Position numbers: made by a program. From contig CAWHXP010000018.1 in NCBI GenBank assembly GCA_963833425.1, positions 1 through 64,000 on the forward strand: a stretch of DNA of 64,000 nt, read 5' to 3'. Position 1 is the first letter of the stretch, and every line of letters starts with the position of its first letter. Shown here in pieces: positions 1 through 9,000 of this stretch. This DNA is from an uncultured Methanosarcinaceae archaeon (GTDB lineage Archaea; Halobacteriota; Methanosarcinia; Methanosarcinales; Methanosarcinaceae).

Positions 1-3000
1 CTTCCCAAGAGACATGATCCGGAAGGTAAAAAAAGCCACAGAAATTGTAGGCCCTACATATATCCATACCCACGCTCCACTTACTACAGGCTGGGGATTC
101 GAAAATTCAAATTCTTGGAAATCGCCAAACTCGCGGTAGAAACCGGTCTATGGCCTATGTATGAGATGGAATTTGGAGAAATAACGCAGGTCAGAAAGAT
201 CAAGGATCCCAGGCCAGTCGAGGAGTACCTGAGAACTCAAAGAAGATTCAAACATCTATTCACCATGGAAGGTGGTAATGAAGAAATCCAGAAAATTCAG
301 GATAATGCAGACTGGAATATAAAACACTATGATCTTAAAGGAAAACTAAGTTTTCACTTTTTTATTCCAGTCGAATACCTTAGCTTTCATTGGTACGTGA
401 ATTTTCCCTAGAAACTTTATTAACTGACTGATTTATATTTTATTCTGCTGCGCTTTTGAATTAAAATGTAATTACAGAATTCAAACCATTGTGTTTATAA
501 AAATAAGGAGGATTTGTTAAACCTCTATTTTCACGAATAACTTATATATAACTTATAATCATGTGATAAAACTTCGGAGCTTCTCGAAATCCTCTAAGAT
601 ACTATATTTTTTTACGTGAATTATCATGAAAAATTTCTTTTAGGCAATGTTATATTCAACGATTTTGAAATATATTCGCTTTAAAATCGGCAAGAGGTAT
701 TGTTTTGAGTTTGATGTGATCTGTAATGATGATCATGTAAATTTTTTCGTTGGTTCTGAACCAACATAAATACCTATATTGTTTATCTATGATTAATTCC
801 ATCAAGTTAGTATGGATAATTCAAAGATCTTAAAAGATTACTTAAGGAAGGTTAAGCAGATGGACTTACGGAAGAGACAATTGCACCTGCTGAATATACA
901 CTTATAAAGTTCATAGAATGGTGTGGAGATCGAGAATTAAAGGAATTACTACAGACGATGTTTACGATTATCTGGATTTTATAAATGCCTATACATACAT
1001 CAAAGCTGGTAAGGCAGTTAAGTACTCGCCTGGTACACAACAAAAAATCCGAACGGTTTTAAAAAAATTCTTGACTTTTATAAATCATGAACTCGGAGCC
1101 GTAATAAAATTGCGGACGCTAAAAAATGGGAAAATCCCCGAAGATATTTTGACTCGCGAAGAAATTGAAAAATTAATTGATTCATGTCTAAGTAACAGAG
1201 ATCGGGCTATAGTTGCTACTTTTTATGAAAGCGGAGCTAGAAGGGGCGAATTACTAACAGTTCAACTTAAACATGTGACTTTTGACGAGAATGGGGCAAT
1301 TCTTAATATACAGAAAGGGAAAACAGGAAGTCGCCGCGTGAGACTTGTATTAGCTTCGTCTTACCTTAAACAGTGGATTGACACGCATCCATTAAAGAAT
1401 AATCATGATGCTTACCTATTCTGTTCAACTAATTCTCCTTTTGGAGTCATCACATTTGTAGGACTTGCAGATCAACTACACAAAATAGCAAATAGAGCAG
1501 ATATCCAGCCAAAAAGAGTTTATCCACATGCATTTAGACATGCCCGAGCAACACATTTAGCCGAACAATTACCTGAACAACTTTTAAAAGAATATTTAGG
1601 CTGGACTAAATCAAGTAATATGGCGAGTGTATATGTGCATATGTCAGGTAGAGATGTGGATAATGCTATACTTAAATTGCACGGAATCGAGACTGAAGAA
1701 GCCCCCAAAAAATTTACTGTTAATAAATGCCCACGTTGTAAGGAAATAAATCCAGAAAATGCTTTATTTTGTTTTAAATGTGGACTGCCACTTACGCAGG
1801 AAGTTTCATCCACTGTAGAATCCGTAAAAACCGATTATATGCAATTTGCAGATCTTAACGAAATCCGGGAAATGAAAAATGTGTTAAAACAGGAACTTGA
1901 TGAAATTTCTAAGTTAAAGGAGTTGATGCTCAAAGCAGGAAAATAACTTTCTCGTAGAGCTTGATCCCAAAACTCAAAATTGCATCTTTTGATTTCAAAT
2001 TCCAAATGACTCACAAGCATAGACAGCTCATAACGAAGCTTAAAATGTGGAAGTCGAGCTATTTGATGAATTGCTGAAAGATTTATTTGTGGCAATCCCT
2101 GAACCAAGGCAAACAATAAGAAGGCCAAGCTTGTTAATTCCTGAATCTCTATTCTGTGCCATTCAGAAAGTGTACTCTCAGTTATCCAGCCGTCATCATT
2201 TAGTCTCTTTCAGAATGCAACTGAAAAAGGACAAATAGAACACGCAACCCATTTCAATGCGCCATCAAAACTCTTCAACATCTAAATATTACTCCAATTT
2301 TACAGAAATTGGTCTACGTATCTGCATTACCAGTAGCCGGATTAGCTACTAATTTCGTCGTCGATTCTACGGGATTCAGATCAACAACATTCCTCATATG
2401 CAACGAAATGGAACATGGACAGAGCAAAGAACATAAGTGCCTTAAGGCTTATATGTGTGGGTGTAAAGATCAACACAGTCGCTTCTGTGATCATAATTGA
2501 TGGGATTACAATGACTCCCCACAGTTTAGCCAATTGATTAATCAGGCATCAGAAGGCTTCTCAATGAATGAGATTTCTGCTGACTTAGCTTATTCGTCTC
2601 GCAAAAATTTTGACGCAGCAAATGTATTGGTGTGAGTCATATATCCCTTTTAAAAAAAATGTGACTGGAAGGGCAACTTGTTCTGCTATTTAGTCATAAT
2701 CTATAATAGTCCTTAACTGACCGGTAATTAGGGTATAACGAATGCCTCTCCATCCTTAAGAAGATATCCCAAAGAAAGTCTAAAAAATAAGAGGGGACTT
2801 GAGTCTGGCTTAGAGATTGGGTAGGGAATTCATAAGCATGATTTTCGAAATTTTCATAAGAATCTGCACGTTTACCGAGACTGTAAATATCTTCGACATC
2901 ATCGTATAAGGTTTTAAAGCTATTTTTCAAGCACTTATCAAAAAAGTGAATCGAATGGGACAACTGAATACGAAGCTCTTTGGCATGAATAGCATCTATA

Positions 3001-6000: not shown

Positions 6001-9000
6001 CGCTTGCATTCTTCTTGTCGACAATAATATCAAACTCATTGCTCCAATCCACGACGCAATTCTAATTGAGTGTGATGAGGAAGAAGCCGATGAGACTATT
6101 TTCCAAGCCCAGAAATTAATGACCAAAGCTTCTTCCATAGTCTTGGGGCCTGGCAATTCCATTAAAACGGAAGCTAATGTCATTAAATACCCCGATAGAT
6201 ATTCTGACCCTAGGGGAGTTGAGACTTGGAATAAGATCCTAAGAATTATACAAGAAATCAAAGCCAAAAATTCTGGTGCTTGATAAACACAACATAGGAA
6301 TTTATGGCTATTTACATCGGAATCTGTGACTATTTACATCGGAATCTGTGACTATTTAAATAGACATGGATTCTACTCCGTCCTATTAATTATTTTTAGA
6401 TCTTTCTATTATTTAATATTATATAGGTAAATAATATGATAACTAAGAAAAAACTAAAATGTCATTTTATCCCCAATACTCCACTCTCTTGGATTCAGAA
6501 AGCTTTACTGTTACAAGGTAATGTAAATGCTACAAAATTAGCTTTGTATATCTGGTATGTAAAAGGTTTAAAGCAAACCAAAACGGATCTTGTTATTTCC
6601 AGTTCTACAGCTAATGATATTTTTGGTGTCAATAAAAGATCTTTCACAAGAGCTCTACAAAAATTGGTAGATTTGGGAATGATAACAACATCAATCCGTG
6701 AACGTGGTAAAAGTCCTAGAGTTACAGTAATATGGGAAGATTCTGAGATAGCATGAGTAATGAAGTTGGAGCAAATCTGTAACATAACTTTTCTTAATAA
6801 ATCTGCTGATCCTATAGGAGCTTCGTCTTGGAGGTTTAGACGATTAATAAGTATGTATGTTTTATAAATTTAATTTTATTTTTTAAATTGGATAAAAACA
6901 TATATAAAATATCTTGAAGCTGGTTACCGTGCAACCAAGGCTAAAGTATGGGGATTCGTTTTGGCCAAACAACGCCTTAATCTGGGACCACCAGGGAGAC
7001 TTTTATAGACTGTTTGACAAATATAGTTACCCTAGTTTAAAAAATGCCTTAAATCGCCCCAAAACCTGTCTTTTATGGCTTCATACTCAAAAGCTCGGCT
7101 ATTTCATACAGAAGAGAACTAATAAAATATTTAACATAAGATCCATATATATTACTTCAAATAAGCAAAAAACGGTGACTAAATGGCTAGACCAACTAAA
7201 ATGACCCCCGATATAATCAATAGAATCGGTGACGGTATATCACTTGGACTTACTTATGCTCTTGCTGCCAATGCAGCCGGAATTACATATCAAACATTAA
7301 ATTTCTGGATGAACAAAGGAAAGAATTCAAAGTCTGGAGAATACTTTGAGTTCTATAAATATATAACTAAATGTAACGCTGATGCCGCGAAAGCTCTCCT
7401 AGAACGCTTAAACAAAGCAGCAGTTGCTGGTAATTGCCAAGTTTGCATGTGGATTTTGGAAAGGCGTTTCAGTGACGACTTCGGCAGGAGAGAATATCGT
7501 AAAATGGACATTGTTTCAGAGAATATAAATGAAAATGTTGAACTAACAATCAAGGAAGGAGATCAAATTAGAAAACAAATTTTAGCGAAGTTTGATCGGG
7601 GTTAAGAAAGTCACGAGTTATCAGTTGATTAAGATTTTTCATCCTAAATTGGTATATTTTTACTAGAATATACTTTCCTTCTGATTTTATTCTGTGGTAT
7701 AATTGCGGTCGGACTACCAAGATCGTCACCATGGATTTTTCCCCAGATTATTCAGGCAGTAACTTTGTGTCCAACCTGCTATTCTCGTGAATTGAACTTT
7801 GAATGTTAACTGCCTGCTTATGCACATATTCTCATTTAACTTTTCTATCTGCTCGTCCTGGTGTGCCGCTGCTCGTCCTTAATGCTCATCTGACCGTAAA
7901 GTGCTTGGATCTAAGCCCAGATGCTCGAGGGTTTCTGTCTTTATCTGCAGAAGGGCACTATCGAATAGTGGAGTACAACACCCCCATCGATAACTGAAAA
8001 TGAAGCAAAAAAGATTAGAATGAAAATTTTAGAAAAGATTAGAATTAGAGATAGGTACATTGAATCATTTATCTAACTGAAATGCTCTTGATAGTTTAGT
8101 TAATTAAGTCGATATTACTCATTTTGCGCAATTTTTTATAAATTGATAAGAACTATATTTAATCAATAAGATGCAATAATTTAATATTTATAAAAATTTT
8201 TATAGTTCTAAAATATTTTAATCCAGAATAAATTTTATTCAAAAACTATTTTTCAGCTCATTAATTTGATATAACGGATTATTTCATATTGTAATTAGCC
8301 GAAAGTGACATCAATGGTATATTGTGCATGCTCACAATGGGGGTGGTAGAAGCTAAGATGCTAAGCATTTTAATCCACGCGGGGGGCAAAGCCGTCACCT
8401 CTTATAAGGTATTGCAGAAGATGATTGATCTGGACTGTCCTTAACTATGTTTCTCTATTATTTTTACAATATCGTTTTTATAAAAGAACTCTAAGTTAAT
8501 ACACGAGTTCGTCATTATTGAAAATAAGTCGCATGCAAAGAACAAAAATAGAGGAGTGAATCATGAAAAAGCTATCCGATAATTTGCAAGAGCTCGCAGG
8601 CCATGTGGCGGATGCAGAAAAGAAAGTCGCGGCCGCCGAACAAGCATCCAAGGAAAAGGTAGAAGCCTCGATCCAGAAATCAAAAGCAGATGCTAAAGCA
8701 AGGCAGGAATCGTTCAAAGCTGACGTCAAAAAGCGCCAGGAAGCGACGGCTATGCATTGGCAAGAACTCCAGGAAGGTTATCATCAGAAGATTCAGCAAA
8801 TCAAGAACAAAATTAAAACCGAAAAAGAGGCTATGGAAGCCAAGCAAGCAACAAGACGGGCGGATGATTCGGAGGCGTATGCCGAGGCTGCCATCAATTT
8901 TGCCATGATGGCAATTGACGAAGCCGAAGTGGCAGTGCTGGAAGCGATTGACGCACGGGTATACGCTGAATCGTTACCTCAAAAGTGAGGACAGCGTTCA

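Follow-up and report, generated by a model that had tools for sequence, protein, structure and literature searches.

Phage-inducible chromosomal islands (PICIs), for example the SaPIs, integrate site-specifically into bacterial chromosomes. Under the operational definition of de Sousa et al. (2023, PMC10085698) they comprise an integrase, regulators, a replication module, terS and accessory genes 3' of terS; that account gives a median size of 9.5 kb and one or two PICIs in most bacteria. In archaea, the integrated thaumarchaeal element NitKor-E1 is described as having TerS and TerL as its only genes of head-tailed viruses (Krupovic et al. 2019, PMC6563490). Archaeal virus satellites include pSSVx and pSSVi (fuselloviruses), the SRCEs (haloarchaeal spindle viruses, 10.1101/2025.02.15.638363) and NMV2S, a satellite of an Asgard head-tailed virus (10.64898/2026.08.12.739948). 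These are small plasmid-derived replicons proposed to use helper virus particles; they have either capsid or ATPase genes of spindle viruses or no such genes, and no terminase subunit is among the genes described for them. Bacterial elements also encode family A polymerases (CHEAP/CCPol), and members of their cluster 15 were noted in some Methanomicrobia (Czernecki et al. 2023, PMC10201439).

The window, the whole stretch of 64,000 nucleotides analysed here, comes from an uncultured Methanosarcinaceae archaeon (contig CAWHXP010000018.1). In it a tyrosine integrase has inserted an element at a fixed 13-bp core within a decayed IS200 tnpA gene. The core, directly repeated and accompanied by inverted arms, marks the ends of a 17.1-kb insertion (749-17877; Table 1). 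The IS200 halves on either side are about 92% identical to an uninterrupted relic at 29244-29746 (PF01797 match at 29407-29622), their overlap being the repeat, and this relic reads GTTGGTTCGGAAC at the position corresponding to the att core. A second copy, on C21, has the same ends, spaced 13.4 kb, and the right junction, attR core followed by the IS200 remainder, is identical in nine of nine metagenome contigs. The left inverted arm, kept in the C21, C8, C15 and G045 copies, is likely to be a core-type integrase binding site. These findings replace the borders of 918-7605 proposed in the genome-wide survey's note, which had seen no att direct repeats of at least 12 nt at the ends. The note's 'C1 copy' is no second insertion: C1 and the C6 end also match the flank outside the element (1-748) at 98.5-99% identity, and so represent one locus, as a strain variant or assembly duplicate.

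Table 1. Features of the insertion and its target, numbered along the window
Feature	Position	Strand	Remarks
Left half of target, decayed IS200 (Y1 transposase) tnpA relic	568-748	.	92.4% identity to left half of uninterrupted relic
attL core GTTGGTTCTGAAC	749-761	+	13-bp direct repeat; identical 13 nt at 17865-17877
Left inverted arm CAACATAAATACCTATATTG	762-781	+	16 of 20 nt match the reverse complement of 17845-17864
Tyrosine integrase, C-terminal zinc ribbon	813-1946	+	5' end broken here; PF00589 E 1e-21; Zn_Ribbon_1 E 2.8e-4
226-aa wHTH regulator	2694-3374	-	LexA_DNA_bind E 9e-4; phrog_1077 transcriptional regulator E 1.7e-3
82-aa AbrB/SpoVT (MazE-like) DNA-binding protein	3538-3786	+	PF04014 E 2.3e-6
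Conserved 56-aa protein	3755-3925	+	60-71% identity in L001, L002, L007, L012
190-aa protein, replication module	3960-4532	+	stop overlaps polymerase start
Family A DNA polymerase (PolA), 584 aa	4529-6283	+	PF00476 E 8.3e-28; phrog_17 E 2.9e-50; PDB 8jrb_A E 3.9e-16
Putative replication origin	6292-6459	.	three tandem 22-bp iterons, inverted copy, A+T-rich palindrome (repeat search)
106-aa wHTH protein	6436-6756	+	weak PHROG matches to DnaD-like loader/replication initiation proteins, E 0.0016-0.0098
Conserved non-coding region 5' of terS	6848-7182	+	TATA-like box and ~250-nt leader
Small terminase (TerS) homologue, 140 aa	7183-7605	+	phrog_4102 E 4.9e-25
Non-coding stretch after terS	7606-7859	.	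71-72% identity to C8:411846-412158 and C13:212632-212386
Variable insert, cargo hot spot	7860-17236	.	patchwork of broken and repeated DNA
Broken MCRA/oleate hydratase gene	9402-11232	+	~60% G+C; inside variable insert
Second broken MCRA/oleate hydratase gene	11738-13352	-	~60% G+C; inside variable insert
DUF1269 gene	13646-14134	-	inside variable insert
289-aa membrane ORF	16002-16871		inside variable insert
Conserved non-coding right arm	17237-17864	.	~630 bp; ends in right inverted arm 17845-17864
attR core GTTGGTTCTGAAC	17865-17877	+	second copy of 13-bp repeat
IS200 tnpA relic, right half	17878-18130	.	91.8% identity to right half of uninterrupted relic

The element is laid out as an integrase, a divergent wHTH/AbrB pair with the 56-aa gene, a replicon, a terS module, a cargo slot and a right arm by attR. 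The gene content listed by the survey for 918-7605 (integrase, wHTH, AbrB, 190-aa protein, PolA, wHTH, TerS) was borne out in domain and PHROG searches. The integrase, however, starts at 813 and not at 918; against six of six other copies including C1 and C6, it has lost one nucleotide after position 850 and another after 945, which leaves an ORF at 918-1946 (phrog_1, E 3.5e-34). With its integrase frameshifted the present copy looks dead, and it is probably inactive and no longer mobile. Homologues of the 226-aa wHTH regulator, whose gene diverges from that of AbrB, occupy the same place in L001, L002, L005, L007 and L012, and the AbrB protein is kept in C21, C8, C7, L001, L007 and L012. The 56-aa protein, without a family match in Pfam and PHROG searches, is a candidate regulator or excision factor; in the loci that share it, integrase identity is 49-50% (L001, L002, L007) or 92% (L012).

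The 190-aa protein accompanies PolA in C21, C5, L012 and L015; it has no match in Pfam, PHROG or PDB, and its Atlas scores are below 0.9. No exonuclease-domain family was reported among the domain, PHROG and PDB matches of the polymerase, which resembles the CHEAP/CCPol enzymes in being an auxiliary polymerase on a mobile element, encoded 3' of a small partner protein, but differs in having no helicase gene beside it. The arrangement of repeats beyond the polymerase gene (iterons at 6292-6361, inverted copy at 6354-6373, palindrome at 6394-6459), together with the wHTH gene next downstream, suggests an origin. That wHTH gene is invariably found 3' of PolA in sister copies, and its product is a candidate origin-binding initiator. 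All four alternative replication modules named by the survey were found in the assembly (PrimPol; DUF927; NrS-1-like PrimPol-DUF3987 with PolA and MT-A70; PolA), and the evidence supports an integrase-borne, self-replicating family with interchangeable replication modules.

That TerS is a genuine homologue, as the survey held, is supported by its PHROG match, reproduced to the figure, by TerL neighbours in viruses, by its fold and by selection on the gene. A search with its profile yielded 17,386 representative proteins at E<=1e-3; the next ORF encodes TerL at 11 of 14 TerS-related loci in IMG/VR, and at the same-genus locus L005 the gene of a homologue with 37% identity overlaps one for a Terminase_6N/6C protein. 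The AF2 model (pLDDT 83.4) shares an HTH at the N terminus and, behind it, a long helical hairpin with Sf6 gp1 (PDB 3hef), which takes the top five Foldseek rows (probability 0.97-0.99, E 0.046-0.17) and is the best match in the VIA structural comparison (Z 9.3, rmsd 5.8 over 106 residues; next match 5.1). Sequence identity to Sf6 gp1 is nonetheless 16%, and ring formation and DNA binding by the archaeal protein are predictions. The gene is kept under purifying selection, with a median dN/dS (omega) of 0.16 among 13 intact orphan copies (dS defined in 74 of 78 pairs).

The terS module also includes some 335 bp of non-coding DNA under constraint. Across 14 copies this upstream region has 54 invariant columns and a mean identity of 68%, the non-coding DNA flanking terS being conserved as much as terS itself, and nhmmer found 36 matches to it in the assembly. 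The region contains neither a conserved ORF nor a consensus RNA fold; a 96-aa ORF at 6914-7204 was rejected as a gene. It may serve as a promoter, as a recognition site for packaging, or as both. TerS genes linked to TerL lack the conserved leader upstream, and thus no packaging site shared with a candidate helper was found.

TerS is also the sole virion-related gene, as had been claimed: among 24 distinct ORFs from across the insertion it alone fell under 'head and packaging' in the PHROG scan, with no other head, tail or lysis match. TerL, portal and capsid families (PF03237, PF03354, PF04466, PF17289, PF05065, PF04860) each gave 0 matches in the 80%-complete assembly, again as the survey had it. 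TerL occurs in the assembly and five sister genomes only as short relics, such as that at C12:21231-21389 (35% over 54 aa, E 4.5e-5), and Terminase_6N is absent from those sister genomes, which have 12-54 TerS loci each. The survey's denial of a large terminase in the elements holds for this assembly, but not for same-genus relatives: a complete att-bounded element of 23.8 kb, with a 27-nt repeat at its ends, combines a full TerL with the same integrase and regulator set and a DUF499/DUF1156/PLD-helicase set, and has no capsid genes. Against a satellite life style, no helper virus was identified. Searches of metagenome and viral contig collections gave 0 matches to the predicted attP junction, none of nine looser matches was attP, and neither an excised nor a circular form was observed; no RNA run contains the stretch, and no encapsidated element DNA was seen.

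Accessory DNA does not lie solely beside the elements but also within this one, downstream of TerS, where 9.4 kb of broken cargo separates the terS side from the right arm. This insert, which also contains repeats present elsewhere in the assembly, has no PHROG structural match and is missing in L012, L015 and contigs of runs X1 and X2; in metagenome contigs position 7859 is fused directly to 17237. The stretch 7606-7859 is shared by some sister elements. The right arm contains no ORF of at least 40 aa, is 80-92% identical at six other loci, where four of six matches stop exactly at 17867, and is present in all nine metagenome attR contigs. In relatives TerS almost adjoins this arm, giving the basic element its size of about 7.5 kb; in the present copy some 10 kb lie between TerS and the far end, where the survey had placed it. 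Same-genus relatives carry BREX (BrxA/B/C/PglX) and Hma (HmaA/B) defence cargo directly 3' of TerS.

The layout of the archaeal elements agrees with the operational PICI definition as set out in PMC10085698: gene order is the same, structural and lysis genes other than terS are absent, integration is site-specific, and the basic size is close to the PICI median. By contrast, these elements live in an archaeon, have wHTH and AbrB regulators in place of AlpA, MerR or Stl homologues, rely for replication on iterons and a family A polymerase with its small partner protein (sister elements have PrimPol or DUF927 instead), and have inserted into a dead IS200 gene; helper, induction and packaging are proposals for the archaeal family. 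Tens of loci occur per genome, and 30-54, far above the PICI numbers in that source, speaks against a satellite. The assembly has 37 IS200 relic matches; such tnpA relics offer many landing pads, a partial explanation of these numbers. Of 32 TerS-like loci in the assembly, seven have an uninterrupted ORF of at least 137 aa and 25 are broken or partial, which, with the frameshifted integrase, makes much of what is seen debris. NitKor-E1 is likewise an archaeal integrase-borne element with terminase genes and no capsid genes in its description, and the G030 relative (L007/L010) is exactly of its kind; but NitKor-E1 is a single case, whereas the present family recurs in many copies bounded by att sites, most of them with TerS and no TerL, and this TerS is under purifying selection. 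Unlike the described archaeal satellites, the present elements are integrative, and TerS would direct them at head-tailed viruses.

A PICI-like satellite is the best fit to these observations. A TerS fold is, however, at the same time an HTH fold that binds DNA, so the protein may have some other DNA-binding role. An integrative plasmid with an exapted TerS-like protein might excise, replicate and re-integrate by itself, spreading by vertical descent, by moving into IS200 relics of the same genome, or through vesicles or uptake. TerS would then regulate the cargo slot, assist partition or replication, or act as a recombination directionality factor. This account, possible if rather doubtful, draws on the complete integration and replication equipment, the very many copies and landing pads, the lack of a helper and TerL in six genomes, the position of TerS just 5' of the cargo slot, and the shared orientation that TerS, right arm, attP and integrase would have in the circular form. 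Yet TerS retains its whole fold, oligomerisation helices included, and not the HTH alone; the closest of its relatives that are not orphans are linked to TerL; one sister element, devoid of capsid genes, has retained a full-length TerL, which would be useless to a plasmid; the highly conserved 56-aa protein by the regulators is a better excision-factor candidate; and TerS lies 10 kb from attR in the present copy.

Provirus decay, with morphogenetic genes deleted and terS surviving by chance as the first late gene, would explain the broken majority of TerS loci, the TerL relics and the integrase and regulators common to TerL-bearing elements, and NitKor-E1 has been read as a likely relic (Krupovic et al. 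2019, PMC6563490). It is improbable, as one truncated layout is found repeatedly, combined with four different replication modules and two types of integrase, with matching att sites and a conserved right arm directly 3' of terS in relatives; orphan terS is under purifying selection, and close relatives in public data form 654 clusters (90% identity). The element could also be an unpackaged chromosomal defence island, its TerS a decoy disturbing the packaging of invading head-tailed viruses alongside cargo of the BREX/Hma type. Such cargo directly 3' of TerS or TerL in three of three well-preserved relatives examined, from other species, the selection on TerS and the failure of contig-collection searches to find a circular form agree with this; the retention of a full replicon and integrase, superfluous for a fixed island, and the absence of PADLOC matches among four ORFs of the present copy's own cargo make it likewise improbable. 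In known PICIs, interference and own packaging occur together, and the decoy is thus part of the satellite model more than its rival.

Positions 749-17877 form an integrated, probably immobile copy of a family of small self-replicating integrative elements that belong to this genus of methanogens, and we hold with about even confidence that the family is packaged via a helper. As the packaging motor is represented by its DNA-recognising part only, the element may spread in borrowed helper-virus capsids. An excised circle would replicate from its own origin; TerS oligomers would attach to the element's DNA, the likeliest site being the conserved stretch next to terS, and bring in the large terminase and the empty capsids that a co-infecting head-tailed virus supplies. 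The element would then leave the cell inside borrowed virions, like the TerS-encoding PICIs and SaPIs of bacteria. In relatives the cargo slot would serve as a carrier of anti-virus systems, while the IS200 relics would provide many landing sites, at which copies may accumulate and decay within one genome.

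The genome-wide survey's note placed a PICI-like element with an orphan small-terminase gene (terS, with no large-terminase gene beside it) at 918-7605 and found no att repeats. The observation is real but the borders are wrong. A 13-bp direct repeat, GTTGGTTCTGAAC, lies at both 749-761 and 17865-17877, and immediately inside it are inverted arms, CAACATAAATACCTATATTG and CAATACAGGTATTTATGGTA, complementary at 16 of 20 positions. The sequence at 568-764 is repetitive, with many members of its family across the assembly, and an uninterrupted one at 29244-29746 provides the corresponding empty site: its left half is 92.4% identical to 568-764 and its right half 91.8% identical to 17865-18130, the two matches sharing 16 nt of query. 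Repeat, arms and split empty-site copy thus set the ends of a 17.1-kb insertion, and the att repeats had been missed because the element extends beyond 7605. With end repeats equal to the target core, inverted arms and an uninterrupted target, the arrangement is that of a simple tyrosine-recombinase att site. A copy on contig C21 of this assembly, 93.9% identical, spans 13.4 kb between the same two ends, its contig ending one base past the core. The final 600-1200 bp ahead of attR recur at six other loci (80-92% identity), with four matches ending precisely at 17867, and the pattern of right end plus core retrieved nine metagenome contigs, in all of which the element end is joined to the target repeat at an identical position. 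In the related genome G045 the attR of its copy (locus L012) was not found, the right arm of this copy being shortened. The supposed second insertion on contig C1 is in fact the same locus, since C1 and C6 also share positions 1-748 outside the element.

The target repeat derives from an IS200 transposase gene that has decayed. In the empty copy PF01797 matches 29407-29622; several more of the aligned empty copies match as well, and 33 of the 37 IS200 matches in the assembly (E<=0.01) contain internal stops. Dead IS200 copies are numerous and offer many landing sites. A PrimPol-type element elsewhere in the assembly (C10:91992-108905) lies between two cbiM-like ORFs (239 aa and a 173-aa partial), with an IS240-family transposase adjoining its terS; its type of integrase may have inserted in or near cbiM.

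The genes that the survey described between 918 and 7605 were recovered by ORF reading and family matches and are listed in the table together with the cargo that follows them.

Features of the element in the window, with their placement and best matches
Feature	Position	Placement	Matches and remarks
Tyrosine integrase	918-1946	beside attL, at one element end	PF00589, E 1e-21; C-terminal zinc ribbon
wHTH regulator, 226 aa		strand opposite to integrase	LexA_DNA_bind, E 9e-4
AbrB/MazE-like protein, 82 aa		divergent from 226-aa wHTH	E 2.3e-6
56-aa protein	3755-3925		no family
190-aa protein		before polymerase, overlapping its start by four bases	no family; accompanies PolA in other copies
Family A DNA polymerase (PolA), 584 aa			PF00476, E 8.3e-28
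Three tandem 22-bp repeats	6292-6361	between polymerase stop and wHTH106 start	inverted copy also present
A+T-rich palindrome	6394-6459	between polymerase stop and wHTH106 start	
wHTH106, 106 aa		after polymerase	weak PHROG matches to DnaD-like loader and replication initiator families, E 0.0016-0.0098
TerS homologue, 140 aa		last gene of 918-7605	phrog_4102 'terminase small subunit', E 4.9e-25
Cargo	7860-17236		two broken convergent MCRA/oleate hydratase genes, DUF1269 gene, 289-aa membrane ORF, repeats found elsewhere in assembly
Broken MCRA/oleate hydratase genes	9402-11232 (+), 11738-13352 (-)		about 60% G+C versus 36% in the genome
Repeat family	11262-11656	in cargo	78-88% identity at five other loci
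Repeat family	13633-14234	in cargo	includes DUF1269 gene; 76-95% identity at six other loci

The integrase translation contains ARRGEL, HAFRHARAT and ASVYVH, which may be the catalytic Arg, His-x-x-Arg and Tyr boxes. The 56-aa protein is the best-conserved early gene product across species (60-71% identity, against about 50% for the integrase). The replication module of this element combines the family A polymerase and the 190-aa protein with iterons and a wHTH protein; the repeats and palindrome probably form an iteron origin, with wHTH106 as its binding protein. The 190-aa protein found nothing in Pfam, PHROG or the PDB, and its Atlas matches did not exceed 0.89. Pairs of a polymerase and a small protein are known from staphylococcal elements, and cluster-15 polymerases from some Methanomicrobia, according to Czernecki et al. 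2023 (PMC10201439). Sister elements carry PrimPol, DUF927 or PrimPol-DUF3987 modules, as the survey had described. The G+C content is 0.31-0.43 across the 918-7605 part, near the 0.34-0.39 of the assembly, and 0.59-0.63 at 9500-11250. A further frame, orf96 (6914-7204), was rejected as a gene: tblastn of the assembly returned only itself, and the longest frames vary in frame and length across 14 copies.

The closely related copy in G045 reveals the basic form of the element. Its integrase, PolA, wHTH protein and TerS are 92%, 80%, 92% and 86% identical to those of the window, and about 100 bp past its terS comes the equivalent of 17268-17491. Position 7859 is likewise joined to 17237 in contigs of two peat metagenome runs, and locus L015 has the same adjacency. 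From these copies without insert, the basic element is about 7.5 kb long with terS as its last gene. The survey's placing of terS at the far end therefore holds for the family in its basic form and fails for this copy, which ends at 17877 and not at 7605. Positions 7860-17236 are inserted DNA in a variable slot, and the MCRA/oleate hydratase genes there look like foreign genes that were gained and have since decayed. The insert has no PHROG structural match, and PADLOC recognised none of four ORFs from it. The two repeat families within it may be small mobile units in their own right.

The copy in the window is probably dead. In each of six other copies, among them the 98.5-99% identical contig ends of C1 and C6, the integrase starts at an ATG matching window position 813, whereas the window copy is short of one base after 850 and another after 945, so that only the frame in the table remains. 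The extra bases are present in related metagenome contigs (at 850 in one contig of one run; at 945 in one contig in each of three runs), and either the integrase gene is broken or the assembly contains two errors. The predicted attP junction had no match in metagenome contigs or in viral contigs, and a looser junction pattern returned nine loci, every one an attR and none an attP. Among the metagenome-contig joints listed there is no link from 17864 to 762; the joints 687 to 17866 and 733 to 17874 are best explained by IS200 relics without an insertion and not by excision at this locus. No RNA run was listed as containing the stretch.

Several lines of evidence bear on the identity of the terminal gene. 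By sequence TerS belongs to the phrog_4102 and phrog_309 families, with a weak match to the MerR-like phrog_2474 (E 0.0026), and a profile built from 14 members of the family matches 17,386 representative proteins at E<=1e-3. In IMG/VR, searched with a 14-sequence TerS alignment, the large terminase TerL is the next ORF at 11 of 14 loci with relatives (ten by Pfam and one more by PHROG), which reproduces at smaller scale the 34 of 40 counted in the survey; of the other three, two have very weak matches and one is without a large ORF. A single TerS protein found no relative among viral contigs. At locus L005 of the same-genus genome G023 a homologue 37% identical overlaps a Terminase_6N/6C gene. 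The poor structural model noted previously (pLDDT 57) is superseded by an AF2 model from a 60-sequence alignment (pLDDT 83.4), in which an N-terminal HTH leads into a long helical hairpin and a helix at the C-terminal end (helices 9-21, 25-31, 36-48, 53-82 and 86-100). The model thus has the HTH and helical oligomerisation core of a small terminase. The top five Foldseek rows for this model are all Sf6 gp1 (probability 0.97-0.99, but E values of 0.046-0.17), and a search independent of Foldseek gave Sf6 gp1 a Z score of 9.3, the next chain 5.1 and P22 TerS 4.4; the sequence itself matched nothing in the PDB at E<=1. The median dN/dS among thirteen intact orphan copies is 0.16, a value that leans towards constraint because intact copies were chosen. 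The TerS tree falls into three groups, the orphans of the expanded clade, other orphans and TerL-linked genes; the orphan label needs two changes on this tree, and its well-supported branches are compatible with one origin.

The approximately 335 bp ahead of terS, here called the leader, are conserved in 14 copies whose TerS is 58-86% identical to that of the window. The alignment has 54 invariant columns, and no reading frame is conserved across the 14 copies. A structured RNA was considered and rejected, as RNAalifold predicted no pairs from the 14 copies and Rfam gave nothing at E<=0.1 over 1-19000. A leader profile has 36 matches in the assembly and none upstream of TerL-linked TerS genes. 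At four loci of the assembly (C10:66146, C8:119121, C5:167462 and C9:73427) the leader and roughly the first five terS codons are followed by the same unrelated sequence; terS there looks to have been interrupted by a different repeated element before being copied. The leader holds a TATA-like box and conserved blocks reaching as far as GGTG before the start codon. In several phages cos or pac sites lie beside terS, and by its position the leader is a candidate packaging site; the plain alternative is a promoter with a long leader.

The relatives of the element differ in cargo and in terminase genes. In genome G025 (L001) an integrase (49% identical), wHTH, AbrB, the 56-aa protein, a DUF927 primase-helicase and TerS are followed by BrxA, BrxB, BrxC and PglX, and in G054 (L002) an integrase, PrimPol-DUF3987, an exonuclease-bearing PolA and TerS are followed by a radical SAM protein, HmaA and HmaB. 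Genome G030 has a 23.8-kb element between 27-nt direct repeats (C15:13672-37525; loci L007/L010). It shares the integrase (50% identical) and the set of regulators, and further encodes a DUF927 protein, an HTH protein of 171 aa with no sequence relationship to the window TerS, a full-length TerL (Terminase_6N and 6C) and then a DUF499/DUF3780/DUF1156-methylase/PLD-helicase defence set known to PADLOC. One more protein, of 1266 aa, has no family, and the element gave no capsid or portal match. Keeping a terminase but no capsid is understandable in an element that borrows the capsids of another, and less so in a plasmid. The combination also fits a provirus in decay, the explanation that Krupovic et al. 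2019 (PMC6563490) proposed for the single thaumarchaeal case NitKor-E1. The TerS-TerL pairs at L018, L020, L021, L022 and L009 (in IMG/VR and G023) have a TerL 66-79% identical to the G023 gene, and no PHROG head match lies downstream of TerL on these short contigs, a weak negative since archaeal portals may escape such profiles; this TerL lineage may reside wholly in capsid-less elements. At L008 a MuF-like head protein is present.

Of 59 same-genus genomes, 20 have TerS-like matches. Six of these are expanded, namely the present assembly (33 matches), G020 (12), G021 (53), G044 (45), G045 (30) and G049 (54), and the other 14 have 1-3 each. The matches of the present assembly merge into 32 loci, seven of which keep an ORF of at least 137 aa. 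A PHROG scan of the 24 ORFs of 749-17877 left TerS as the sole 'head and packaging' match, upholding its description as the only virion-related gene; with no TerL, portal, major capsid or tail genes, this interval is not a complete head-tailed provirus. The survey's report of no TerL, portal or capsid gene in the assembly, which is 80% complete, was likewise confirmed with six Pfam families covering TerL, portal and HK97 capsid (no match), and Terminase_6N gave no match in the five sister genomes, 73-92% complete. Queried with the L005 TerL, four other genomes gave full-length genes at five loci, and the six expanded genomes only short fragments, mostly with stops, from which it follows that viruses or elements with a TerL of this type visited the lineage. 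A weak relic of the TerL nuclease domain lies in a gene-poor stretch of this assembly (C12:21231-21389; 35% identity with the G023 TerL across 54 aa, E 4.5e-5), and the five sister genomes have 1-5 similar relics each, covering residues ~362-448. No resident helper is visible.

Much is known of the bacterial satellites that hijack head-tailed viruses; they move defence and virulence genes. By the PICI definition in PMC10085698, the element has its integrase at one end (frameshifted here, intact in C1, C6, C21 and L012), a small terminase gene with accessory genes after it (the cargo lies past terS here and also in L001, L002 and C9) and no other structural or lysis genes. The regulators differ: PICIs use alpA, merR or stl homologues, whereas here a wHTH and an AbrB/MazE-like protein are found and no AlpA, MerR or Stl family was matched, although the divergent layout resembles the PICI regulation module. 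In this family the TerS-encoding satellite design takes a new, archaeal form, for which we infer a satellite life style. Krupovic et al. 2019 (PMC6563490) state that PICIs had not been detected in archaea, and Zhou et al. 2025 (10.1101/2025.02.15.638363) give pSSVx and pSSVi as the only archaeal satellites known before the SRCEs of spindle viruses. Meltzer et al. 2026 (10.64898/2026.08.12.739948) propose that a circular molecule of 3.8 kb, which has no terminase gene, is a satellite of an Asgard head-tailed virus. The archaeal satellites described in these sources comprise plasmid-derived ones of spindle viruses and one small circular candidate, and full-text searches of the main texts of openly accessible papers yielded no description of TerS-carrying integrative elements in methanogens.

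It is tempting, if slightly against the balance of probability, to regard these elements as the first PICI-like satellites of archaeal head-tailed viruses: one family of a methanogen genus, ranging from capsid-less forms with TerS and TerL to minimal forms with TerS only, which would take over helper capsids by means of a terminase subunit of their own and a conserved recognition region beside terS, ferry BREX and Hma between cells, and use dead IS200 genes as landing pads to reach 30-54 loci per genome. The family offers a concrete test system, with exact att sites and target, a defined replicon, TerL-bearing intermediates, defence cargo and a terS gene with a constrained flank that could be a packaging signal. 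If the reading is confirmed, peat-soil methanogens too would be subject to virus-mediated gene flow and virus-satellite conflict; if it is not, the family still shows how an integrase aimed at a dead transposase gene can fill a genome with copies.
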